From contig CAVRJC010000007.1 in NCBI GenBank assembly GCA_963721435.1, forward strand, positions 11,843 through 75,842: a stretch of 64,000 nucleotides of DNA, given 5' to 3'. The notes beneath the pieces are model-generated. The model ran no database searches and was not told the DNA's origin. It was given only the letters and a program-made list of their open reading frames with translations. The position numbers and the translations under genes were made by a program. Origin of the DNA: an uncultured Actinomycetes bacterium (lineage in GTDB: Bacteria > Actinomycetota > Acidimicrobiia > IMCC26256 > DASPTH01). Position 1 is the stretch's first letter; every line of letters starts with the position of its first letter. Positions 9,067 through 26,608 of the stretch are shown piece after piece.

Positions 9067-9693
9067 ATGCCACGTCGGGCGTTGGTCGAAGCAAGCGAAG
9101 CGCTCGCGAGTCGTGACCCGCAGCTGGCCTCGGTCATCGCGACCGTCGGGCCCTGCGACATCAGATCGAGTCGCCCGAAGCGCACCCACTTCGCGGAGCT
9201 CGTGCGCGCGATCTGCTACCAACAGCTCGCGGGCGCGGCCGCGAGCACGATCCACGGTCGCGTCGAAGCGCTGTTCGACGCGCCGCCCACGCCGGAGGCG
9301 ATGCTCGCGCTGCCCGTCGAGTCGCTGCGCGGTGCCGGGCTCTCCGGCAACAAGACCGCGTCCGTGCGTGACCTCGCCGAGCGGGTGCTCGCCGGTGACG
9401 TCGAGCTCGACCGTGTGAGCCGGCTCCCCGACGACGAGGTCGTGCGTGAGCTCACGCTCGTCCGTGGTATCGGCCGCTGGACCGCCGAGATGTTCCTCAT
9501 CTTTCAACTCGGTCGCCTCGACGTGTGGCCGGTCGACGACTTCGGCGTGCGCAAGGGCTACGGCCGCATCTACGCGCTGCCCGAAGCACCGAAGCCACGC
9601 GCGCTCGAGGAGCTCGGTGAGCCGTTCCGGCCCCTGCGATCGGTCGTGGCCTGGTACTGCTGGCGCGCCGCGGAGCTGCCCGAGCTCGGGTGA
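9067..9693 (+). CDS. DNA-3-methyladenine glycosylase II / HhH-GPD base-excision glycosylase (AlkA-like)
   Basis: HhH-GPD motif LTLVRGIGRWTAEMFLIFQLGRLDVWPVDDFGVRKG. Confidence 0.8.
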   Translation: MPRRALVEASEALASRDPQLASVIATVGPCDIRSSRPKRTHFAELVRAICYQQLAGAAASTIHGRVEALFDAPPTPEAMLALPVESLRGAGLSGNKTASVRDLAERVLAGDVELDRVSRLPDDEVVRELTLVRGIGRWTAEMFLIFQLGRLDVWPVDDFGVRKGYGRIYALPEAPKPRALEELGEPFRPLRSVVAWYCWRAAELPELG

Positions 9694-9695
9694 GC

Positions 9696-10232
9696 TCAGC
9701 GGTCCGGCGCGGGCGACGAGCGTTGCCGCCAGCGTTCGTGCATCGCCGCGGCATGCTCGGCGAACGGCGGGAGCCCGACCTTGCGCCGCCGTTCCTCGAC
9801 CGCCCCGAGGTCGTCGATCGGCCAGGGCTCGAGGTCGCCGCTGCGCCCGACCACGAACTGCGACCCGTAGAGCTGCGGGAGACCGTCGGCCATGCGGACG
9901 CGATCGAGCAGGAGCGCGTAGTGCTGCGGATCGGCGTCGCCGGAGTCGACGGCCACCTCGAGCAGCTCGAGGCAGCGGTGCTGCAGACCCGGGTCTTCGA
10001 TGGCCTCCTGCACGATGATCCACGCCGCCCGGGCGCCGTCGTCGCCCACCAGCCGGCGACCGGGCCACACCTCGTAGTCGTCGAGCACGGTCCAGATGCG
10101 GTCGGCGTGGCGACGGTCGACGACCCGTCGCGCGTCGAGGAGCGCGGGGTCGTCGTGGGCGAGCGCCGCGGCTTCGCGATGTTCCGCGAGCATCGCCACG
10201 AGCTCGGCGCGCAATGCACCGTCGACCGGCAT
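9696..10232 (-). CDS. hypothetical protein
   Basis: GC3-biased ORF. The start is taken at the internal ATG (MPVDGALRAEL) to leave a promoter gap before the divergent ABC-F gene. I did not recognise any domain. Confidence 0.4.
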   Translation of the reverse strand: MPVDGALRAELVAMLAEHREAAALAHDDPALLDARRVVDRRHADRIWTVLDDYEVWPGRRLVGDDGARAAWIIVQEAIEDPGLQHRCLELLEVAVDSGDADPQHYALLLDRVRMADGLPQLYGSQFVVGRSGDLEPWPIDDLGAVEERRRKVGLPPFAEHAAAMHERWRQRSSPAPDR

Positions 10233-10310
10233 CGGGCTCAGGGTACGCTCGCACTCGTGTAGCACGCCGGTCCCCGCTCCGACCCTCCTCATCACGCTCC
10301 GGGATCGCTC

Positions 10311-11966
10311 ATGCCTGCTGACACCAGCTCTTCGTTTTCGCTCGTCGGTCGTGACCTCGCGCGCGAGTACGGCACGTTCACCGTGCTCGACGGCGTCGAC
10401 GTGACGGTCGGCCCCCGCACGCGGCTCGGGGTCATCGGCCCGAACGGCATCGGGAAGACGACGCTGCTACGGATCCTGGCGGGCGTCGAGCGCGCCGATC
10501 GGGGTGCGGTCACGTGCACACCGCCGACCCTGCGGGTCGGCTACCTCCCGCAGGAGCCGGACCGGAGTGACGAGGAAACGCTTGCGGAGTTCCTCGCTCG
10601 CCGTGCGGGGGTCGCAGGTGCCGAGCAGGAGCTCGAGCGCACCGCGGCGGCGCTCGCGGCCGGTGAGGCGGGTGCGGACGACGCGTACACCGCGGCGCTC
10701 GAGGGGTATCTCGCCGCAGGCGGCCCCGACTTCGACGCCCGCATGCGCGCGGTGTGCGACGACCTCGGGCTCCCGCAATCGCGGCTCGACCTGCCGACCC
10801 GGGCGCTGTCCGGTGGCCAGGCTGCGCGTGCGTCACTCGCGGCGATCCTGCTCGCGCGCTTCGACGTGTTCCTGCTCGACGAGCCCACCAACGACCTCGA
10901 CTTCGCGGGCCTTGCGCGTCTCGAGCAGTTCCTTGCCGAGCTCCCCGGTGGTGTGGTGCTGGTGAGTCACGACCGTGCCTTCCTCGACCACACCGTCACG
11001 CGTGTGCTCGAGCTCGACGAGCACACGCGACGAGGGACGGAGTACGGCGGCGGCTGGCAGGGCTATCTCGACGCGCGCGCGACCGCGCGTCGTCATGCCG
11101 AAGAGCAGTACGAGGGATATCAGTCGGAGCGGGCGCGCCTCGAGGCTCGCGCGCGTACGCAACGCGAGTGGGCGGTTCAAGGCGCACGGGCCGAGAAGCG
11201 CAACCCACGCGACAACGACAAGGCGCAACGCGACTTCCGCGTCAACCGCACCGAGAAGCAGGCGGGGAAGGCGAAGGCAACCGAGCGCGCGATCGCGCGG
11301 CTCGACGTGGTGGAGAAGCCGTGGGAAGGGTGGGACCTGCGGTTCCAGCTCGCGGACGCCGCCCGCAGCGGTGACGTCGTGCTGCGCCTGGAGCAGGCGG
11401 TGATCGAACGCGGCACGTTCCGGCTCGGGCCCGTCGATCTCGAGATCGGCTGGGGCGAGCGCGTCGCCATCGTCGGCCCCAATGGCTCGGGCAAGACGAC
11501 GTTGCTCCTCGCGCTCCTCGGCCGCCTCCCGCTCGCCGCCGGCCACCGGTACATCGGGCCGGGCGTCATCGTGGGCGAGATGGACCAGGCGCGCGTGGCC
11601 TTCGACGTCGACGCGACGCTGCTCGACGCGTTTCTCGCCGCGACCCGGCTTCCGATCTCCGAGGCCCGATCGCAGCTGGCCAAGTTCGGGTTGAGCGCCG
11701 AGCACGTGCTCCGGCCCGCGGCCACGTTGTCGCCCGGCGAGCGCACGCGCGCCGTCCTCGCCCGCTTCGCCGCCCAGGGCGTGAACTGCCTCGTGCTCGA
11801 CGAGCCCACGAATCACCTCGATCTCCCGGCGATCGAGCAGCTCGAGGCCGCCCTCGATGGGTTCGAGGGCACGCTGCTCCTCGTGAGCCACGACCGCCGT
11901 CTGCTCGAGGTGGTGCGCACGACCCGGGCGCTCACGCCCGAGGGGGCGATCGTCGCGGCGCAGTAG
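10311..11966 (+). CDS. ABC-F family ATPase with two ABC domains and no TM segment; translation factor or ARE type
   Basis: Two Walker A sites (GPNGIGKTTLL and GPNGSGKTTLL), two signature motifs (LSGGQAARASLA and LSPGERTRAVLA), and a charged interdomain linker with no membrane domain. Confidence 0.9.
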   Translation: MPADTSSSFSLVGRDLAREYGTFTVLDGVDVTVGPRTRLGVIGPNGIGKTTLLRILAGVERADRGAVTCTPPTLRVGYLPQEPDRSDEETLAEFLARRAGVAGAEQELERTAAALAAGEAGADDAYTAALEGYLAAGGPDFDARMRAVCDDLGLPQSRLDLPTRALSGGQAARASLAAILLARFDVFLLDEPTNDLDFAGLARLEQFLAELPGGVVLVSHDRAFLDHTVTRVLELDEHTRRGTEYGGGWQGYLDARATARRHAEEQYEGYQSERARLEARARTQREWAVQGARAEKRNPRDNDKAQRDFRVNRTEKQAGKAKATERAIARLDVVEKPWEGWDLRFQLADAARSGDVVLRLEQAVIERGTFRLGPVDLEIGWGERVAIVGPNGSGKTTLLLALLGRLPLAAGHRYIGPGVIVGEMDQARVAFDVDATLLDAFLAATRLPISEARSQLAKFGLSAEHVLRPAATLSPGERTRAVLARFAAQGVNCLVLDEPTNHLDLPAIEQLEAALDGFEGTLLLVSHDRRLLEVVRTTRALTPEGAIVAAQ

Positions 11967-14939: not shown

Positions 14940-17171
14940 CTACACGCCCACGGGCTCGGGTGTCCGCTCGATCGCCGCCGGTTCCTGCGGTGTCGGCGAT
15001 GCCGAGTCGATGTCGAGCCGCGGGAGCCATCCGAGCCACTTCGGGAACCACCAGTTCGCGTCGCCCAGGATCTCCATGACGGACGGCACGAGCATCATGC
15101 GCACGATGGTGGAGTCGATGAGCACCGCGAACGCGAGCCCGAGCCCGAACATCTTCACCTCGGGCGACTCGTTCAGGACGAACGCGCCGAACACGAAGAT
15201 CATGATCAAGGCGGCCGACGTGATCACGCGCGCGGTGCGCGAGAGCCCACGCACGACGGCTTGTCGCGTGTTGTGCGAGCCGTCGTACTCCTCGCGGACA
15301 CGCGTGAGCAGGAACACCTGGTAGTCCATCGACAGCCCGAACAGCACCGCGAACATCATCATCGGCACGAACGAGACGATGGGGACCGTGCTCTCGAGGC
15401 CGATGAGGTCCTTCGCCCAACCCCACTGGAACACCGCCACGATGACGCCGTACGCGGCCGCCACCGAGAGCAGGTTCATCACTGCCGCGGTGAGCGGCAC
15501 GAGGACCGAGTGGAAGACGAGCATCAACAGCAGGAACGAGAGCAGCACGACCGCGAAGATGAACAGCGGCAACCGTGACGCGATCTGGTCGGAGATGTCG
15601 ATGAACGTCGCCGTCACGCCACCGACGTATGCCTGCACGCCGGTGGCGCCACTGGCCGAGATCGCCTTCGGGATCTCGTCGCGCAGCGTCTGCACGAGGT
15701 TGTTGGTCGCGTCGCTCTCGGGTGCGCTCGTCGGGTACACGCCGAGCAGCGCCACCGTCTTGTCCGTGTTGAAGTTCGCGGGCAGGACCCCTGAGACGCC
15801 CGGCGTCTGCCTGATCGCCGCCGCGATGTCGTCGACGACTGCCTCATCGGCGTCGGGCGGGAGCGAGACGACGACGAGCAGCGGCCCGTTCGCGCCGGGC
15901 CCGAAACCTTGTGCGATCAGGTCGTAGGCCTGGCGCTGGGTCGTGGAGGTGGGCAGGTTGCCGTCGTCGGACTCGCCGAGCCGCATGCTCAGGAACGGCG
16001 ACGCGATCACCAGCATGATGAGCGTCCCGACGATCGCGAACACCCACTTGTGCTCGGCGACTCGCACGGCCCAACGCTCCCAGAACGTGGGGCCCGCGGG
16101 TGCTGCACCCGCGTCGCGGTTCGGATGGTGCATGAAGCTGGGTACTCGCCACTTGTCGATGTTGTGGCCGACGATCCCGATGATCGCGGGCAGGAACGTG
16201 ATCGCCGCCAGCATCATCACCGCGACGACCATCGCCGACATGTAGCCGAGGCGCGCGACGTAGGGGATTCCCGAGACCGCGAGCCCGGAGATCGCGATCA
16301 CCACGGTGCAGCCGGCGAAGATCACCGCGGAGCCGGCGGTGGCAACCGAGTGCCCCACCGCGGCTTCGACGGGCATCCCCGCGGCGAGGTTCTCGCGGTA
16401 GCGCGTCACGATGAACAGCGAGTAGTCGATCCCGACGCCCAGGCCGATCATCGTCGCGAGGGTCGGAGCGAGGGTGCCGATGTCGGTGATCGCGGCGACG
16501 ATGTTGATGAGCGAGATCCCGATCCCGAGGCCGAAGAGCGCGGTCAGGATGGGGAGGCCCATCGCGACGACCGATCCGAACACGAACAGCAGGATCACGA
16601 CCGCCGCAAGCAGCCCGATGAGGTCGGCGTTGCCTTCCGGCGGTTGGTCCGAGAAGTCGACGACCGCGCCGCCGTACGCGAGGCGGACGCCCGCCTGCTC
16701 CGCAGGCGCGGTGGCTGCAGTGATCTGGTCGAACGCGCCGAGCCCGACCTGCTGCGCGAGCTCGTCGTACTGCACGGTCACGAGCGCGATGTCGCCGGAC
16801 TTCGAGACGATCGCCGCGCCGAGGGGACCGTACGGGTCGGTCACCGACGTGACGTGCGGGATCTTCGAGAGGTTGGCGACGCTCTCGCTGATGGCGGCCT
16901 TCACCGCCGGGTCGTTGATGCCGTCGTTGCTCTGGAACACGACGGTGGCGGTGCTCCCGCTCTGTGACGGGAACTGTGACTGCAGCAGGTCGAGCGCTTC
17001 CTGCGACTGGCTGCCATCGATCCGGAAGTTGTCGCTCGTCTGGCCGTCGAGGCCCTTCGAGAGCAGGCCGATCCCGACTGCGGCGATCACCCACACCGCG
17101 ACGAACCACCAGCGATGCCGAACCGCGCTTCGCCCGAGACGGTCGAGCCACCTCGACACAGATCCTCCCAT
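14940..17171 (-). CDS. MMPL family RND-type transporter
   Basis: 743 aa with 12 predicted TM segments in two blocks, each followed by a large loop. Typical MmpL architecture. Confidence 0.9.
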   Translation of the reverse strand: MGGSVSRWLDRLGRSAVRHRWWFVAVWVIAAVGIGLLSKGLDGQTSDNFRIDGSQSQEALDLLQSQFPSQSGSTATVVFQSNDGINDPAVKAAISESVANLSKIPHVTSVTDPYGPLGAAIVSKSGDIALVTVQYDELAQQVGLGAFDQITAATAPAEQAGVRLAYGGAVVDFSDQPPEGNADLIGLLAAVVILLFVFGSVVAMGLPILTALFGLGIGISLINIVAAITDIGTLAPTLATMIGLGVGIDYSLFIVTRYRENLAAGMPVEAAVGHSVATAGSAVIFAGCTVVIAISGLAVSGIPYVARLGYMSAMVVAVMMLAAITFLPAIIGIVGHNIDKWRVPSFMHHPNRDAGAAPAGPTFWERWAVRVAEHKWVFAIVGTLIMLVIASPFLSMRLGESDDGNLPTSTTQRQAYDLIAQGFGPGANGPLLVVVSLPPDADEAVVDDIAAAIRQTPGVSGVLPANFNTDKTVALLGVYPTSAPESDATNNLVQTLRDEIPKAISASGATGVQAYVGGVTATFIDISDQIASRLPLFIFAVVLLSFLLLMLVFHSVLVPLTAAVMNLLSVAAAYGVIVAVFQWGWAKDLIGLESTVPIVSFVPMMMFAVLFGLSMDYQVFLLTRVREEYDGSHNTRQAVVRGLSRTARVITSAALIMIFVFGAFVLNESPEVKMFGLGLAFAVLIDSTIVRMMLVPSVMEILGDANWWFPKWLGWLPRLDIDSASPTPQEPAAIERTPEPVGV

Positions 17172-17258
17172 GGTCGTGCCTGCTGTGCCCCGTTGCCTCT
17201 CGGTTGTCGACTCGGAGCAGCTCCGCCTTGATGTCCGAATCGCCCGATCACGATACGC

Positions 17259-20154: not shown

Positions 20155-20886
20155 ACCCGGCCGTCGAGGCGGTGTCGGCATTCTTCCCGTGTTTCAACGA
20201 CGAGGCCACCATCGGGTCGATGGTGAACCTCGTCGTCACCACGATGGAGACGCTCGGCGTCGACGGCTGAGGTCATCGTGATCAACGACGGCTCCACCGA
20301 CGGCTCGGCCAAGGTGCTCGACGACCTGGTGCTGACCCAGCCACTGCTGCGCATCATCACGCACGAGCACAACTCGGGGTACGGCGCGGTGCTGCTGTCG
20401 GGATTCGCGAACGCCGGTCGCCAATGGGTCTTCTACACCGATGGTGACGCGCAGTACGACCCCACTGAGCTCGAGCTGCTCGTGCAGCACGCGAGCGACG
20501 ACGTCGACGTCGTGCAGGGGTACAAGCTGCGCCGCGCCGACGGCGTGCTGCGGAGTGTGGTGGGCCGCGTGTACCACCGGTTCGTGGCGGTGTTCTTCGG
20601 GTTGAAGATCCGCGACACCGACTGCGACTTCCGGCTGATCCGGCGCGCCATGCTCGACAAGATCGAGCTCGAGCACACGACCGGTGCGATCACGGTGGAG
20701 CTCGTCCGCAAGCTGCAGGACGCGGGCGCGGTGTTCACCGAGGTCGGGGTGCACCACTACCGCCGGGTGTACGGAAGCTCGGAGTTCTTCACCATCCCCG
20801 CCGTCGCGCGCACGCTCTGGGATCTCGCCGGGCTCTGGATCGGGCTGGTGGTGCTGCGCCGCGGCCGCTCGCACGGCGCCCGCTGA
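20151..20886 (+). pseudogene. GT2 polyprenol-phosphate glycosyltransferase (DPM1/ArnC/GtrB-like), split by a +1 frameshift near 20264-20268
   Basis: The N-terminal part (VSAFFPCFNDEATIGSMVNLV...TLGVDG, then stop) and the remainder (EVIVINDGSTDGS...YTDGDAQYDP...) are in adjacent frames. Removing one G from GACGGCTGAGGTC restores the typical GT2 junction LGVDAEVIVINDGS. This is either an authentic pseudogene or a sequencing indel. Confidence 0.7.
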
Positions 20887-20887
20887 C

Positions 20888-21610
20888 TCAGTCCTTCGTC
20901 GCGAGCACCAGCGCGGAGGTGCCGATGGGGAGATCGCGCGTCGCGAGAACCTTGCGCTCGGCTCGTGCCATGGGAGCGAACACCGAGTCGAGGGTGCGCC
21001 GCTCGACGTCGGACTCGGTCGGCGGCGCGGGCCGCACCCGGTCGAGCGCACCGAGCGCAGCGGCGGGCGGCGCGAGGAACGAGTAGGCGTAGGTGCAGCG
21101 GCGGGGCGTGAGCCCGGCCGCTCGCGCGAGGTCGGCGAGCTCGGCGCGGCGGTAGCGGCGCCGGGAGTGCACCGTCGAGTCGTGCGCGCGGCGGAACGCC
21201 TCGAACGCGGGCTCGACGAGCACCACGGCGCCACCACGACGCAGGACGCGCGCGAGCTCGCGCAGCGCGCGCGCGTCGTCGGGCACCGTGTAGAGCACGG
21301 TGATCGCGACGATCTGATCGAACGTCGCGTCGGCGAACGGCAGGGCCTCGAGGTCGGCACGTGCCGGCAGGGTGTCGGGCCGGTTGTCGCGCACGAACTG
21401 CAGCGCGTCGGGGGAGATGTCCACGCCGATCACGGTCCCGTGCGCTGCGAGCCACGCGCCGTTGCCGCCGGGCCCGCACCCCGCGTCCAGGGTGCGCTGC
21501 CCGCGCCCGAGCCACGGTGCCAGCAGCTCGCGCACGAGCGCGCGGGTGTTGCGGTACCACCAGTGGTCGTCTTCGACCGCGGCGATGCGCGCGTACTCCT
21601 CAGTCTCCAC
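20888..21610 (-). CDS. class I SAM-dependent methyltransferase
   Basis: SAM-binding motif I (TLDAGCGPGGNGAWLA) and VDISPDAL. Convergent with the GT2 gene. Confidence 0.85.
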   Translation of the reverse strand: METEEYARIAAVEDDHWWYRNTRALVRELLAPWLGRGQRTLDAGCGPGGNGAWLAAHGTVIGVDISPDALQFVRDNRPDTLPARADLEALPFADATFDQIVAITVLYTVPDDARALRELARVLRRGGAVVLVEPAFEAFRRAHDSTVHSRRRYRRAELADLARAAGLTPRRCTYAYSFLAPPAAALGALDRVRPAPPTESDVERRTLDSVFAPMARAERKVLATRDLPIGTSALVLATKD

Positions 21611-21715: not shown

Positions 21716-23932
21716 TTATCGGTCGGCGACGCGGAGGGTCTCGATGACGAGGTCCGACGACGACCACGCCTGCACGCCCACCCGCTGACCCGCGGGTGCG
21801 TTGCGACCGCGCTCGACCGAGCCCTGCTCGAGGTCGTCGATGGTCATCACGACGGTGTCGTTCACCGATGCGACGAGGCGCTGGCCCACGATGTCGAGGC
21901 GCACGGTGAGGTTGCCGTACATCGTGCTCGGGTCGTCGGCGGCGACGTGTGCGATCGGGTTCCAGAGCTCGCGGTCGGCCTGCCACTGGCGCACGAGGTA
22001 CCCGCCGCCTTCGTACACCGGGTCGACGTCGAACGAGTACGCCGACATGCGGCCCTCGTCGTCGACGTCGGCGCGGAACAGCACACCGAAGCCAGGCCCG
22101 GCGCGGAACTCGAGATCGACTTCCACGAGGTAGCGATCGGACACGGTGAGGTTGGCGAGCGCCCACCGCTCGTCGGCCCGTCGCATGACCAGCGCACCCT
22201 GGCCGCGTACTTCGACCAGCGGCAGCGCGTTGCCGAGCTCCCAGTCGTCGTCGGCCCTGATCCACGCCTCGGGTTCCGGGTCGCCACTGCGGTCGAGCCG
22301 GTTGGCGGCATCGGTGACGGGCTCGGCGGTGTCCGAAGTCTCGTCAGTCTCGTCAGTCTCGTCAGTCTCGTCAGTCTCGTCAGTCTCTGCGGGCGCGGGC
22401 TCGATCGCCGCTTCCTCGGGCCGCCAGGAGATCGGCGAGAGGGCGTCACCCTCGTCCGGTGCGTCGACCTGGTCGGGACTCTTCAGGGGCTCAGTCGGCT
22501 CCCACGTCGGCGGCTCGTCGACCGCGACGAGCTTGTCGAGCAGGTCGGTGGCGCCATGGGCGTCGACATCGTCCGCCACGTCGACGTCGGCAATCTCGTC
22601 GTCGATCGTCTCGGTCTCGTCGACCGTTGTCTCGAACCTGCCGCGGGTGCGCCGCTCCGGGCGGGGTGCCGCCGGTGCGTCGGGGTCGCCCCAATCGACG
22701 AGGAACCCGGTGCTCGTGGCCTCGGGGTCGGGCTCGTGCGCCCACGGTGCGGGCGCGGGCTCGGCGAGCGGTGCGGCCTGCAGCGGCGGCAGATCGCGGA
22801 GGTCCTCGTAGCTCGTGAGCGCGATGACCTCGACGGCCGCCTCGTCGGCATGGCCGTCGACCCCGGGCTGGAGGTCGAACGCCTCGGCCGGGCTCCATGC
22901 GTCGGGCACCTCGGTGGTGCCTGCGTCACCCGGCCACTCCGGCGCGCCCGACGTCGTGTCCGGCTCGTTCCAGACACCCGACGTCGCGGTCTCCCAGTCG
23001 GGCGTCTCCCACGCGGGCCGCGCGTCGGGATCCCAGTCGGTGGTCCACGCCGGCGGCGTGAAGGTCTCGCCGCGGAGGGCGACGTCGATCGGCGGCGCAT
23101 CGGCCGGCGACCACGAACGGTCGACGGTCTCCGATGCGGCTTCGACGACGGTGGGAGCATCGAAGTCGGTGTGCCCGGGCGCCTGCACGTCGGCGACGGA
23201 TGCCGCGCCCGGCAGCACGAACGGCTCGTCGTCGACGAGCTCGAAGGTCCCGGACGGTGGTGCGATCGCCGAGTCGATCATGCCGGACTCGCCTATGGCG
23301 GCGAACGGCACGGCTTCCGCCATCCCCGATTCGACCGGCGCGTCGGCGGTGAGGAACGCGGGTGGCGCGAGCATGTCGGGGTAGTCGTGCGGGTCATCGG
23401 TCAGCGCTACCGGCTCGGGCAGCCGCGCGAGCTCTTCGAACACGTCGACGGGCGCCGCGGTCGTCGGCTCGGTGGAGGCGGATGCGGGCGCGAACGGCTC
23501 CGGCGCGAAGAACGGCTCCGGCGGTTCGGGCAGCGCCGTTGGAGCGGGCGCGGCCTGCGGACCGGAGTAGACCGGCGTGGGCTGGTCGGCCGCTTCGAGC
23601 GCGAGGACTGCACGGCCACCCGCACCGTTCTGCTGCCCGCGGCGCAGGAACGCGATCGTGTCGCCGATGCTCTCGGGGCCGGCTTCGAGCTCGAGCGCGC
23701 CCTGGTCGGGCACCAGCTCGCTGACGTCGACGCCGCAGGATCCGGCGAGCACCCAGAGGTCGCTCTCGGGGATCGGCACCTTGCCCCGCTCGTACGCGAC
23801 GAGCTCGCGGCGGCTCAGCCCGGCGCCGCGCGCGACCTCGGAGAGCGAGAGGCCCTTCCGTCGCCGCACTGCGCGCAATTGCTTGCCGAGTTGCTTCGGA
23901 TTGGTCGTCGGGATGGTCGCCGCCTCGGCCAT
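21716..23932 (-). CDS. HTH_XRE DNA-binding protein with a long acidic Pro-rich disordered linker and a C-terminal DUF1080/LamG-like jelly-roll domain
   Basis: The start is taken at the ATG at 23932 (MAEAATIPTTNPKQLGKQLRAVRRRKGLSLSEVARGAGLSRRELVAYERGKVPIPESDLWVLAGSCGVDVSELV, an XRE-type HTH); sequence upstream of it in the 1207-aa ORF is low-complexity. About 500 aa of D/E/P/A/T-rich low-complexity sequence follow, including an ETDETDETDETDETDET repeat. The C-terminal roughly 180 aa (LTVSDRYLVEVDLEFRAGPGFGVLFRA...GQRVGVQAWSSSDLVIETLRV) match the DUF1080 / 3-keto-disaccharide-hydrolase-like beta-sandwich pattern. I see no TM helix. Confidence 0.7.
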   Translation of the reverse strand: MAEAATIPTTNPKQLGKQLRAVRRRKGLSLSEVARGAGLSRRELVAYERGKVPIPESDLWVLAGSCGVDVSELVPDQGALELEAGPESIGDTIAFLRRGQQNGAGGRAVLALEAADQPTPVYSGPQAAPAPTALPEPPEPFFAPEPFAPASASTEPTTAAPVDVFEELARLPEPVALTDDPHDYPDMLAPPAFLTADAPVESGMAEAVPFAAIGESGMIDSAIAPPSGTFELVDDEPFVLPGAASVADVQAPGHTDFDAPTVVEAASETVDRSWSPADAPPIDVALRGETFTPPAWTTDWDPDARPAWETPDWETATSGVWNEPDTTSGAPEWPGDAGTTEVPDAWSPAEAFDLQPGVDGHADEAAVEVIALTSYEDLRDLPPLQAAPLAEPAPAPWAHEPDPEATSTGFLVDWGDPDAPAAPRPERRTRGRFETTVDETETIDDEIADVDVADDVDAHGATDLLDKLVAVDEPPTWEPTEPLKSPDQVDAPDEGDALSPISWRPEEAAIEPAPAETDETDETDETDETDETSDTAEPVTDAANRLDRSGDPEPEAWIRADDDWELGNALPLVEVRGQGALVMRRADERWALANLTVSDRYLVEVDLEFRAGPGFGVLFRADVDDEGRMSAYSFDVDPVYEGGGYLVRQWQADRELWNPIAHVAADDPSTMYGNLTVRLDIVGQRLVASVNDTVVMTIDDLEQGSVERGRNAPAGQRVGVQAWSSSDLVIETLRVADR
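22338..22387. repeat. 9-bp microsatellite GTCTCGTCA, 5 full copies plus a partial copy, inside the coding sequence; encodes (ETD)n on the minus strand
   Basis: Read directly: the unit GTCTCGTCA tiles 22338-22382 and ends in a truncated copy. The unit length is a multiple of 3, so copy-number changes stay in frame. Confidence 0.9.
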
Positions 23933-24010
23933 GATCTTTGGTATCGGCTGCTCACCCGTCTGCCTGAAGGGTGAGCTGCACGGGTCTGGTCGGGGTAGGT
24001 TCGCGGCTTC

Positions 24011-24571
24011 ATGGCCATCTACGCCCTCGGCGACTCCGCACCGCAGATCCATCCCGCGGCATACGTGCACCCCGACGCCACCGTCATCGGCAACGTCACG
24101 ATCGGCCCGCAGTCGACGGTGTGGCCCCAGACCGTCCTCCGGGGTGACTACGGCCGGATCGAGATCGGTGCCCGCACGTCGATCCAGGACGGCAGCGTGG
24201 TACACACCACCGCGTTGCTCCCGACGATCATCGGCGACGACTGCGTGATCGGGCACCTGGTGCACCTCGAGTGCTGCACGGTGCAGGACCGCGCGCTCGT
24301 CGGCACGGGCGCGATCGTGCTGCACTCGGCGGTGATCGAGTCGGGTGCGTGGGTCGGCGCCGGGGCGGTGGTCCCGAACCGCATGATCGTGCCCACCGGG
24401 GCGATGGCCCTCGGTGTGCCGGCGAAACTGCGCGAAGGCGTGGTCGATCCCGACGAGATCCAGCGGATGGCCGACCTCTATATCGGCAACGCCACGCGCT
24501 ACCAGCGCCGAGCTGCGCCGCATCGACTGACGCGCGGCGCGCGCGTCAGTCGATGCGCGGTCGATGCGTGA
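24011..24571 (+). CDS. gamma-class carbonic anhydrase family protein (hexapeptide-repeat left-handed beta-helix, YrdA/PaaY-like)
   Basis: Repeating [LIV]GxxxxIxxxxVIG hexapeptides, with PQIHPAAYVHPDATVIGNVTIG and the metal-ligand His context. Confidence 0.9.
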   Translation: MAIYALGDSAPQIHPAAYVHPDATVIGNVTIGPQSTVWPQTVLRGDYGRIEIGARTSIQDGSVVHTTALLPTIIGDDCVIGHLVHLECCTVQDRALVGTGAIVLHSAVIESGAWVGAGAVVPNRMIVPTGAMALGVPAKLREGVVDPDEIQRMADLYIGNATRYQRRAAPHRLTRGARVSRCAVDA

Positions 24572-24606: not shown

Positions 24607-25905
24607 CTAACCCTTGACGTACGCGAACTTCTCGGCGACCTTGCCGTCGCGCACGCGGATGACATCGACGCCGCGGATGTGTGCGGTCGTGCCGTCGTCG
24701 TTCTCCCACGAGTAGACCCACTGCACGACACACCGGTCGCCCGTCACGATCACGTCTTCGGCATCGAAGTGCGCGGTCGGTGACGCGGCGAAGAATTCCT
24801 GCCACGCACCGCGCACCGCGGCTGCCCCCTCGAATCGTCGGCCCTCGGGTGGCGACGTGTTCTCGAACACACAGTCGTCGGTCATCGCGGCCATCACGCC
24901 GTCGACATCGTGGCGGTTGAACGCGTCGTTGAACCGGTCGACCGCTTCGGCCGTCGCCGACTCGCTGGATGCCATGGTCACTCCTGTCTCGTCGCCGTCC
25001 GGTCGGTACAGGTCGGGTTCCACGAACATCAGCCGCGCCTCGGGCACCGAGGTTCGCACGCGCGCTTCCACCGTGTCGATCGCGCGCGCGACCTCGGGCA
25101 CGGTCGACACGCTGAATTCGAGCTTGGTCGCGACGAGCACGTCGTCGGGGCCGAGGTGCATCGTGCGCAGGTGTATCACGCGCGACACCTCGTCGCCGTC
25201 GTGGATCGCGGTCCGGATCCGCGCCTCCAGTGTCGGGGACGCCGACTCGCCGATCAGCAGGCTCTTCATCTCGATCGCGAGCACGATGGCGATCACGCCG
25301 AGGAGCAGGCCGATCGCGAGGCTCCCGACCGCGTCCCAACGGTCATTGCCGGTGACCTCGGCGAGGGTGATGCCGACGAGGGCCATGAACAGGCCGGCGA
25401 GCGCGCCCGTGTCTTCGAGCAGCACGACGGGGAGCTCGGGGTTCTTGGTCGTGTGGATGAACTGCCACCACGAGCGGCCGTCACGCGACGGGTTCGCTTC
25501 GCGACGCGCGGTGCGGAGTGACAGTCCTTCGAGCACGATCGCGACGCCGAGCACCACGTACGCGACGATCGGTGATTCGATGTGCTCCGGAGTGATGAGC
25601 TTCTGGATGCCCTCGTACAGCGCGAACATCGAGCCGAGCGTGAACAGCACCAGCGCGACGACGAACGCCCAGAAGTAGCGCTCGGCGCTGTACCCGAAGG
25701 GATGTTGCACGCTCGGCGCGCGCTTGCTCCGCCGGCCGCCGAGGAAGAGCAATCCCTGGTTGCCGGTGTCGGCCACCGAGTGGATCGCCTCCGCGAGCAT
25801 CGACGCCGAGCCCGTGATCGCGAACGCAAAGAACTTCGATGCCGCGATCCCGAGGTTGGCGAGGAACGCGGCGACGATGGCCCGGCGAGTCGCCTGGTCA
25901 GTCAT
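24607..25905 (-). CDS. cation diffusion facilitator (CDF) transporter with an in-frame C-terminal SnoaL/NTF2-like domain
   Basis: Starts MTDQATRRAIVAAFLANLGIAASKFFAFAITGSASMLAEAIHSVADTGNQ, with CDF TM helices carrying the HS.AD and DxxxH metal-site context, then the cytoplasmic CTD (...EARLMFVEPD). With no stop in between, a 120-aa SnoaL-like domain follows (AVDRFNDAFNRHDVDGVMAAMTDDCVFE...GVDVIRVRDGKVAEKFAYVKG). Confidence 0.8.
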   Translation of the reverse strand: MTDQATRRAIVAAFLANLGIAASKFFAFAITGSASMLAEAIHSVADTGNQGLLFLGGRRSKRAPSVQHPFGYSAERYFWAFVVALVLFTLGSMFALYEGIQKLITPEHIESPIVAYVVLGVAIVLEGLSLRTARREANPSRDGRSWWQFIHTTKNPELPVVLLEDTGALAGLFMALVGITLAEVTGNDRWDAVGSLAIGLLLGVIAIVLAIEMKSLLIGESASPTLEARIRTAIHDGDEVSRVIHLRTMHLGPDDVLVATKLEFSVSTVPEVARAIDTVEARVRTSVPEARLMFVEPDLYRPDGDETGVTMASSESATAEAVDRFNDAFNRHDVDGVMAAMTDDCVFENTSPPEGRRFEGAAAVRGAWQEFFAASPTAHFDAEDVIVTGDRCVVQWVYSWENDDGTTAHIRGVDVIRVRDGKVAEKFAYVKG

Positions 25906-26608
25906 CCCGTACGTCCCACACGGTGCTCGTCGCCAACCGCACGGTGTCGCCGTCGGCACTCGAGAGGCGCAGCACCGAGGTGCCGCGCTCGTAGCCGTCG
26001 AACCGCGCCGTGACCGTGTCGGCGGTGCCGTCGACGGCAGTGTGCGCGACGGTGAGCACGCGGCCTTTCCCGAGCCGGAGGCGTTCGTCCCATCCGTAGC
26101 GGAGGCACCCGTCGGGCCCACGTCGCGGTGGCTTGCCGACGTGCACGCGCTGCTCGCGGTACGACGCCGCCAGGACCGCGGCGTGCTCGGGGCCCCAGAA
26201 CTCGGCGGTGGCGTCGAGCAGCACGCGTGCGAACGTGCGGCCGTGATGCGGGAGCCCGGAGTCGATCCCGAGTGCCCAGTGGGTCATCTCGTGGAGGACG
26301 ACGCCCTTCGTGCGGTACCGCCGCGGCAGCGTGATCGTCGGGCCGGTGTCTTCCACTCGGAAGAACGCCTGGCGCGCGCCGTTCCCCGGACGCAAGCGGG
26401 GAACCGACGCGAGATCGTGGTCGGGGAACCGCTCGTGCCACCAGAGCGTGCCGACCACACGGTCGATGAAGCGTGCACAGGCCTCGAGGCCGGGGAGGGG
26501 GCTCGTGGGCAGCGGGGTCTCCGCGAGGTACACCCGGCTGCGTTGCGCGTCCCGTGGTCGCCGCCGCGGCGGCGTCGCAGGCTGGCGGCCGGCCGCAGAG
26601 GGATCCAT
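25898..26608 (-). CDS. putative HExxH zinc metallohydrolase (TIGR04338-like) with a C-terminal extension
   Basis: HEMTHW zinc-binding motif within VVLHEMTHWALGIDSGLPHHGRTFARVLLD. It overlaps the downstream CDF gene start by 8 nt, so the two are probably co-transcribed. Confidence 0.55.
   Translation of the reverse strand: MDPSAAGRQPATPPRRRPRDAQRSRVYLAETPLPTSPLPGLEACARFIDRVVGTLWWHERFPDHDLASVPRLRPGNGARQAFFRVEDTGPTITLPRRYRTKGVVLHEMTHWALGIDSGLPHHGRTFARVLLDATAEFWGPEHAAVLAASYREQRVHVGKPPRRGPDGCLRYGWDERLRLGKGRVLTVAHTAVDGTADTVTARFDGYERGTSVLRLSSADGDTVRLATSTVWDVRDD

Follow-up and report, generated by a model that had tools for sequence, protein, structure and literature searches.

The stretch of DNA analysed here (the window) comprises 64,000 nucleotides of contig CAVRJC010000007.1 (positions 11,843 to 75,842, forward strand; assembly GCA_963721435.1) from an uncultured bacterium of the Acidimicrobiia, and the gene of interest lies on its minus strand at 21716..23932. 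We found that this gene is a single open reading frame of 738 codons, with its ATG at 23932 and a TAA stop at 21716-21718, and that its product (the window protein) joins a BldD-type XRE helix-turn-helix (HTH) to a C-terminal beta-sandwich of the CBM66/DUF1080 type (CBM, carbohydrate-binding module) through a long, acidic, disordered region. The start is conserved in related loci: nearly all of them place an ATG 12-17 codons ahead of the conserved motif LGKxLR, which supports the start chosen in the window. The G+C content at third codon positions (GC3) of the 738-codon frame is 0.84-0.93 from end to end. Hence, there is one coding frame, and the disordered middle is translated in the frame of both ends. 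An earlier note on this DNA, made from the sequence alone, had read the HTH and the C-terminal domain as parts of one gene, and this holds, both for the uniform GC3 in the window and for the same fusion in at least 88 full-length homologues.

We searched 5.8 billion proteins and obtained 117 homologues. Of these, 88 extend over the full length and retain the HTH as well as the C-terminal motif ...RVGVQAWSSSDL...; among 1.84 billion cluster representatives, screened exhaustively with a profile, 71 clusters at 50% identity scored E < 1e-30. All homologues with a named source come from metagenome-assembled genomes (MAGs) of Acidimicrobiia. By scanning one genome per GTDB species with two peptide patterns, which divergent forms would escape, we found 52 loci in 52 assemblies, one in each and all of them uncultured. 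As far as seen, the family is confined to uncultured Acidimicrobiia, a group that abounds in soils and waters and whose biology is poorly known. Its members share one order of parts: the BldD-type XRE head, a helical module in most of them, a polyanionic, Pro-rich region of 300-750 residues and the CBM66/DUF1080-type beta-sandwich. In a short form, P0192 (279 residues), the HTH is followed by ~35 residues and the beta-sandwich, and the gene stands near the same neighbour genes. Public annotation names the homologues only 'helix-turn-helix domain-containing protein', and our literature search found no paper on a DUF1080-HTH fusion or on BldD-like proteins in Acidimicrobiia; on both counts the architecture is undescribed, as the earlier note had supposed.

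The N-terminal HTH occupies residues 14-73 (23714..23893, minus strand; helices at 12-73 in the model). The hidden Markov models (HMMs) HTH_31 (PF13560; 38.5 bits, residues 14-72) and HTH_3 (PF01381; 34.2 bits, residues 19-73) both exceed their Pfam cut-offs of 27 and 23, respectively, so the XRE-type HTH called earlier passes the HTH_3 check that was proposed for it. Five helices were predicted here by AlphaFold2, with a predicted local distance difference test score (pLDDT) of ~96. The top NCBIfam match of the window protein is BldD (NF050110) at 28 bits, covering model positions 4-78 only. When a profile of the family's N-terminus was compared with the PDB, the best match was the BldD DNA-binding domain (2ewt/4ob4; E 2e-7, the next match having 5e-6), which makes BldD the protein with the most similar solved DNA-binding domain by sequence. 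Across the family, which falls into a close and a distant clade, the HTH is 62-95% identical, and the recognition helix is nearly invariant between the clades. Judged by these profile matches, the HTH is specifically BldD-like. BldD is the master developmental repressor of Streptomyces (NF050110; PDB 2ewt, 4oay and 5khd).

Right behind the HTH, 68 of the 89 full-length members carry a helical module of ~70 residues, as judged by running a module HMM against the family; its consensus is LxxYLxxxxxLxxLPPGxRxPxxxRxLxxxAxALGxxPxxIExRL...EAxRLRxMILP. The module is missing from the window protein and 20 others (21/89). In the window protein it has been deleted, and only the flanks GDTIAFLRR ... GRAVLALEA are left (residues 90-114; 23591..23665, minus strand), which sequence comparison and the module HMM mark as the remnant of a module like the C-terminal domain of BldD. 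In typical members, the BldD model was covered in one stretch from position 7 to 157 of its 162 (E 7e-12 to 9e-8; 32-45 bits), five PDB entries of the BldD C-terminal domain matched the second module, each weakly (E 0.09-0.9), and Pfam BldD-like_C matched it at E 0.018. The 68 members carry a colinear counterpart of the BldD C-terminal domain, whereas the window protein does not. Since the helical module is absent from 21 members, and both it and the long linker are absent from P0192, the invariant core of the family consists of the HTH and the beta-sandwich.

The likeness to BldD has clear bounds. BldD has 167 residues and neither a disordered region nor a beta-sandwich, whereas the family has both. 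The BldD equivalog cut-off (250 bits) is far above the scores of the window protein (28 bits) and of the family members (32-45 bits), and the cyclic di-GMP (c-di-GMP) motifs RGD-X8-RQDD are not conserved, the close clade having QAL...K[DE]RE and the distant clade RNL...R[EQ]xD. Hence, these are remote BldD-like proteins and not BldD orthologues. Binding of c-di-GMP through the BldD motifs was rejected because the motifs are absent at the aligned positions. We also found stand-alone relatives of BldD size (153-182 residues), one of which (P0423) shares its MAG (DASPTH01) with a family locus (L023). Hence, the long proteins form a paralogous line, one that acquired the tail. As a separate observation, P0412, P0417 (locus L057) and P0433 have the BldD-like head (HTH and helical module) followed by a hydrophobic segment that looks like a transmembrane (TM) helix and by an acidic tail; to judge from these sequences, the head is also present in apparently membrane-anchored forms.

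The C-terminal domain, assigned by a family HMM and by fold, spans residues 551-738 (188 residues; 21719..22282, minus strand). Its pLDDT is ~96 in the full-length AlphaFold2 model, and a domain-only AlphaFold2 model built from a 29-sequence alignment reached a pLDDT of 89 and a predicted template modelling score (pTM) of 0.87. The domain superposes on solved DUF1080 structures as a concanavalin-like beta-sandwich, and it also resembles in fold the founding member of CBM66, 4b1m, the levan-binding module of B. subtilis levanase; sequence identity to the DUF1080/CBM66 structures is 13-15%. The Pfam model of DUF1080 (PF06439; gathering cut-off 26.8 bits) gave 13.5 bits with the whole window protein and 17.7 bits (E 0.004) with the domain alone. 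Among the homologous domains, 26 of 29 matched PF06439 at E <=0.01 (best 5.2e-8), and ~25 homologues carry a precomputed match. Hence, with PF06439 support in the family and the structural evidence, we assign the domain to the concanavalin-like beta-sandwiches of the CBM66/DUF1080 type. The DUF1080-type C-terminus that the earlier note had proposed is thereby upheld, by family-level matches and by strong fold support.

We found the motifs GPGFGVLFRA, YSFDVDP and GGGYLVRQW in this domain, and a strand RRADERWAL at residues 584-592. Its invariant charged and aromatic residues (R585, D587, R589, D635, W650 and W657) form a candidate ligand site. When other architectures of the domain were sought by word-indexed and exhaustive searches, high scores went only to this family and then to secreted-type relatives. 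These second-tier matches (E 1e-20 to 1e-11) include proteins with FN3 repeats, an Flp-pilin fusion and a camelysin-like protein. The motifs G[FY]GxxFRA, GY[ST]F[DQ]xDP, GGxFxxRxW and PIA are common to the family and these relatives, whereas the N-terminal strand RRADxRWAL is invariant in the HTH-fused family and missing from the secreted-type proteins. Hence, the apparent origin of the domain is an extracytoplasmic module of the lectin type, taken up by a cytoplasmic protein. Known DUF1080/CBM66 members are secreted or periplasmic modules of glycan breakdown; the family domain differs from them in being, by prediction, cytoplasmic, in its fusion to an HTH and in the extra strand RRADxRWAL. 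Likewise, CBM66 is appended to a glycoside hydrolase, whereas the window domain is appended to an HTH and not to an enzyme. The RRAD strand is RxxD-like (HRAD in P0192), which as a link to c-di-GMP may be taken as a lead only. One second-tier relative, P0257, is fused to the N-terminus of an Flp/Fap pilin, a pilin-lectin-type fusion.

Between the two folded ends, residues 81-550 (22283..23692, minus strand) form a region rich in Pro, Ala and Thr with 106 Asp and Glu, 18 Lys and Arg, 66 Pro and 12 Trp, and with a net charge of ~-88. The pLDDT is below 50 for 324 residues of the full-length model, nearly all of them here. By composition and pLDDT, the long acidic linker rich in Asp, Glu, Pro, Ala and Thr that had been described earlier is indeed present and mostly disordered, at ~470 residues. 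Of the WxxP-like spacing claimed with it, the Trp residues in acidic and Pro contexts are real and the regularity is not: the spacing is irregular. Linker length in the family ranges over 299-752 residues, and the net charge is negative without exception, at -0.06 to -0.21 per residue. Enrichment in Trp is limited to the close clade, with counts of 10-30 there and 1-7 in the distant clade.

An alignment of 89 sequences showed islands of conserved short motifs inside the disordered region (coordinates on the minus strand). The motif VDVFEELARLPEP (residues 162-174; 23411..23449) has a short helix predicted at 164-169 and a pLDDT of ~80 over residues 161-190, and it takes the form VVDFFSxPRAxDPF in the distant clade. 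The motif ADAPPIDVAxR (residues 277-287; 23072..23104) opens a Trp-rich acidic stretch, 274-346, and HxPDPxAxxxGFxVDWG (residues 399-415; 22688..22738), also taken from the full-length alignment, falls in a region with pLDDT 58-72 (residues 400-420) and a helix at 403-407. PIxWR (residues 500-505; 22418..22435), from the list of invariant columns, is common to both clades, and its W503 is invariant in 90 sequences. Tandem Repeats Finder located a perfect 9-bp tandem repeat (22337..22387; 5.7 copies, 100% matches) that encodes (Glu-Thr-Asp)n and is a likely site of length variation.

To our knowledge, bacterial transcription regulators almost never have hundreds of disordered residues, and we know of no bacterial XRE regulator in which a polyanionic disordered chain this long is established. 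Acidic tails and disordered regions are known to autoinhibit DNA-binding domains, as does the acidic tail of HMGB1, and eukaryotic transcription factors have acidic/aromatic activation domains. The window protein likewise has a polyanionic chain on a basic DNA-binding domain, with 12 Trp in acidic sequence; the analogy is one of function, with no homology.

Immediately upstream of the gene, we found a conserved, promoter-like pair of boxes (23941..23971, minus strand), which ends 8 nt before the ATG. Each of the 40 loci for which upstream DNA is available has the pattern CCCT[A/T]CAG-N17-(G)CCGATA[C/T]; its end lies 6-9 nt ahead of the start codon, and its spacer is not conserved. We compared it with the flagellar/WhiG consensus TAAA-N16-GCCGATAA (PMC8325347 and PMC12871210) and found at most two mismatches in 23 loci, three in 16 and four in one, with a spacing of 16 in 39 of the 40. 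The published criterion requires that TAAA-N(about 16)-GCCGATAA be matched with two mismatches or fewer, no more than 200 bp from a start codon (PMC8325347); as background, 28 sites with at most two mismatches occur in the 5.4 million positions of the same loci, a count that includes the 23 promoter matches. The window copy, TTCA-N16-GCCGATAC, has three mismatches to the WhiG consensus. RsiG, the anti-sigma factor of WhiG, has been reported in Acidimicrobiales (PMC8325347). From the boxes, a sigma-28/WhiG-type promoter is a lead, and its short, unvarying spacing from the ATG points to a leaderless mRNA.

Other readings of the box pair were rejected. A structured RNA was discarded after RNAalifold on 30 loci gave -2.2 kcal/mol, with three trivial pairs and no covariation; from the alignment, two promoter boxes with a spacer of fixed length and non-conserved sequence are favoured over RNA structure. 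An operator for the protein itself was discarded on inspection, the pair being no dyad and not fitting the BldD box TNAC-N5-GTNA. The strict box pair occurs only once within the 64-kb window, which gives no local regulon there, and the window genes that were surveyed included none for a sigma factor or for flagella. An Rfam scan gave one tRNA only. In ten loci (L004-L012, L018, L024, near 14,950), a WhiG-like TCAA-N16-GCCGAAAC lies ~50 nt before the MMPL gene, and the window has a degenerate version, TCAA-N16-GTCGACAA, at 17204-17231 (minus strand), ~45 nt upstream of the MMPL GTG at 17159. In addition, a 14-nt inverted repeat, GCTGCTCACCCGTC / GAAGGGTGAGCTGC (23947-23979; 86% complementary, 5-nt gap), overlaps both the -35-like box and the spacer of the window copy; its sequence is not conserved elsewhere, although GC-rich palindromes occur in many other spacers.

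We found that the highest 19-residue Kyte-Doolittle mean in the window protein is 0.99. Hence, it has no membrane helix. Among ~90 homologues, no TM segment is conserved or convincing: their hydrophobic peaks fall at non-equivalent positions and consist of Ala/Val-rich runs interspersed with Pro and charged residues. The N-terminus of the window protein is not of the signal peptide type, and from this absence of export signals and TM segments we infer a cytoplasmic location. RodZ resembles it in having an XRE-type HTH at the N-terminus, a long Pro-rich region and a beta-rich domain at the C-terminus, but it also has a single TM helix, which the window protein lacks. Furthermore, the RodZ-type HTH_25 scores only 14.2 bits in the window protein (cut-off 24.6), and DUF4115 has no match in it at E <=1. 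The earlier judgement that the protein lacks a TM helix and is not RodZ-like is therefore borne out by the hydropathy of the window protein and of its homologues. The RsgI-type anti-sigma factors of Clostridia consist of an anti-sigma domain, a TM helix and an extracellular CBM. They share with the window protein a cytoplasmic regulatory head, long Pro/Thr-rich disorder and a C-terminal CBM-type module; their anti-sigma domain, TM helix and extracellular CBM were not seen in it. On hydropathy, a TM helix and a RodZ or RsgI topology were rejected.

The gene is flanked by the same neighbours in many loci. Downstream by 105 nt lies a gene for an S-adenosylmethionine (SAM)-dependent methyltransferase (20888..21610, minus strand; Pfam Methyltransf_11), which is adjacent on the same strand in ~30 loci. 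No terminator-like site was found between the two genes, and their co-transcription is possible. Upstream, a hexapeptide-repeat gene of the gamma-carbonic-anhydrase type (24011..24571, plus strand; Pfam Hexapep/LbH) is a neighbour in 34 loci; it starts at 24011, across 78 bp from the ATG at 23932, and is the divergent gamma carbonic anhydrase gene that the earlier note had placed there. Next comes a Cation_efflux (cation-diffusion-facilitator, CDF) transporter with a C-terminal SnoaL-like fusion (24607-26121, minus strand), a conserved upstream neighbour in 38 loci. Synteny is strong in both clades for the CDF transporter, the divergent LbH protein, the target gene and the SAM methyltransferase. 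Beyond the methyltransferase, it extends to convergent genes for a family 2 glycosyltransferase (GT2), a DegT aminotransferase and an epimerase, and to an acyl-ACP thioesterase, MMPL, the Leu/Phe-tRNA-protein transferase (Aat) and an Rpf-like transglycosylase; the GT2/DegT/epimerase sugar genes are not adjacent in the distant clade. Since the neighbours are functionally mixed and the sugar genes are non-adjacent in the distant clade, the synteny probably reflects shared ancestry and not a pathway. On the same grounds, we rejected a function read from the neighbourhood. In one locus only, L053, a PAS-GGDEF gene of the diguanylate-cyclase type (9670-10935) lies two genes downstream of P0192; by its domains, it may bear on a connection to c-di-GMP.

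A BldD-type head binds its operator only as one of a coupled pair, and BldD achieves this with a c-di-GMP tetramer that bridges its C-terminal domains, a coupling reportedly described by Tschowri et al. in 2014. In the family studied here, the c-di-GMP motifs are lost and members can do without the helical module, whereas none of them lacks the beta-sandwich, in which certain Arg, Asp and Trp residues are invariant. Hence, we propose the beta-sandwich as the sensing or coupling module. We hold the following reading tentatively, with confidence that stops somewhat short of even. The window protein would be a cytoplasmic one-component transcription regulator whose beta-sandwich binds a sugar-type or anionic ligand of the cytoplasm, self-associates, or does both, and the state of the beta-sandwich would set whether two HTH heads act together on DNA. 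The polyanionic region would compete with DNA for the basic surface of the HTH and so autoinhibit it, and its conserved motifs would serve as docking sites for partners. The gene would be expressed from the sigma-28/WhiG-type promoter, its mRNA lacking a leader. One-component regulators of the XRE/BldD type are a kind already known; new are the CBM66/DUF1080-type domain as a cytoplasmic module, the 300-750 residues of polyanionic disorder with conserved motifs and the WhiG-like promoter.

Several points weigh against this regulator. The PF06439 score of the window protein is under the Pfam cut-off, and the window copy of the promoter exceeds the published WhiG search criterion by one mismatch. 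Outside the family, the proteins closest to the beta-sandwich are, by their sequences, of the secreted type, so a cytoplasmic sugar ligand is an extrapolation. To go by its genes, the neighbourhood is conserved but heterogeneous and offers no clear pathway link, and no conserved palindromic operator or other conserved non-coding motif was found beside the gene. A tether of 300-750 residues far exceeds what the simple coupling of a sensor to its output would require, and the motifs conserved along it point to additional partners. Above all, the functional statements are without exception drawn by inference, and the hosts are uncultured.

The gene could in principle be an artefact, with separate HTH and DUF1080-like genes, or a pseudogene, read as one frame. 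Gene callers do give separate pieces on several long contigs, such as 156-residue proteins from the internal Met of MRRADERW. However, the window frame is uninterrupted with uniform GC3, the order of conserved motifs is identical in 88 full-length homologues, and the split calls are found mainly on contigs that are short or that, though long, probably have a frameshift in the repetitive linker. The short separate calls are probably fragments or frameshifted assemblies and no argument for two genes; we rejected the two-gene reading, which the motifs of the full-length alignment and the in-frame GC3 contradict, and artefact is scarcely credible. Nearly as improbable is a sensor that spans the membrane like RsgI, ToxR or RodZ, keeping its HTH in the cytoplasm and displaying a carbohydrate-binding module outside the cell. 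In its favour, the parts follow an order similar to that of these sensors, secreted-type proteins are the nearest kin of the C-terminal domain beyond the family, and the N-terminal units of P0412, P0417 and P0433 continue into a TM-like segment, but the window protein has no TM segment at its peak hydropathy of 0.99, and ~90 homologues share none; nor does its N-terminus resemble a signal peptide.

If the beta-sandwich served as an anchor, it would hold on to a polymeric or membrane-bound glycan of the cytoplasm (a storage glucan or a lipid-linked envelope precursor), and the acidic chain would let the HTH reach the nucleoid; the protein would then link nucleoid to glycan, or be a regulator titrated off the DNA by an abundant polymer, and not a ligand-switched dimer. 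We consider this unlikely, though with a small chance that deserves mention. It would account for a fold of the lectin/CBM type, for a very long, charged, Pro-rich chain in nearly all members (299-752 residues) and for the Arn-like sugar-modification set downstream in many loci (methyltransferase, GT2, DegT aminotransferase and epimerase, with PMT_2 in L053). However, the distant clade has no adjacent sugar-modification genes, and P0192 manages with a 35-residue linker, so length is not essential to the core function. A scaffold or hub is clearly improbable: its HTH would bind a protein, as that of RodZ binds MreB or that of SepH binds FtsZ, its motifs would recruit partners and its beta-sandwich would interact like SPRY or LamG domains. 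At least five islands of conserved motifs along the disordered chain (two with raised pLDDT), an unusually conserved HTH (62-95% identity) and a single-copy gene at a conserved position would fit such a role. However, the closest HTH is that of BldD, a bona fide DNA-binding domain, the RodZ-type HTH_25 reaches only 14 bits, and the window protein has neither a TM helix nor a match to DUF4115 or DUF3071; the stand-alone BldD-like paralogue of normal size in the same MAG also fits a regulator origin.

Returning to the one-component regulator, a bolder form of it, in which we place little belief, is a BldD-derived developmental or lifestyle regulator whose signal input moved from the c-di-GMP domain to a cytoplasmic lectin fold with an RxDxR strand (RRADxRW), and whose 300-750 disordered residues, polyanionic and interspersed with aromatic residues in the manner of eukaryotes, act as a DNA-mimicking autoinhibitor and docking hub for partners, within a circuit controlled by WhiG (sigma-28). 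If true, this would be a bacterial one-component regulator dependent on very long disorder, in which a CBM-type fold reads an intracellular nucleotide or glycan signal. Attached to a DNA-binding head, a fold of the CBM66/DUF1080 type would add a new kind of sensor domain to those of one-component systems. The polyanionic region of 300-750 residues, kept across the whole lineage, offers a natural system in which to study long disorder in bacterial gene regulation, and the BldD-like head together with the WhiG-like promoter suggests a differently wired acidimicrobial relative of the developmental circuitry of Streptomyces.

Two of the sequences showed irregularities of their own. Locus L001 (CAZDJK010000052.1) is titled 'uncultured Bifidobacteriaceae bacterium', yet it has 72.5% G+C and is syntenic with the Acidimicrobiia loci, so that the label looks wrong. 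In the window, the GT2 glycosyltransferase gene appears frameshifted at ~20170-20290 (plus strand): its N-terminal part ...VSAFFPCFNDEATIGSMVNLV... stops near 20268, and the remainder, EVIVINDGSTDGS..., runs in the next frame to 20886, through either a sequencing error or a pseudogene.

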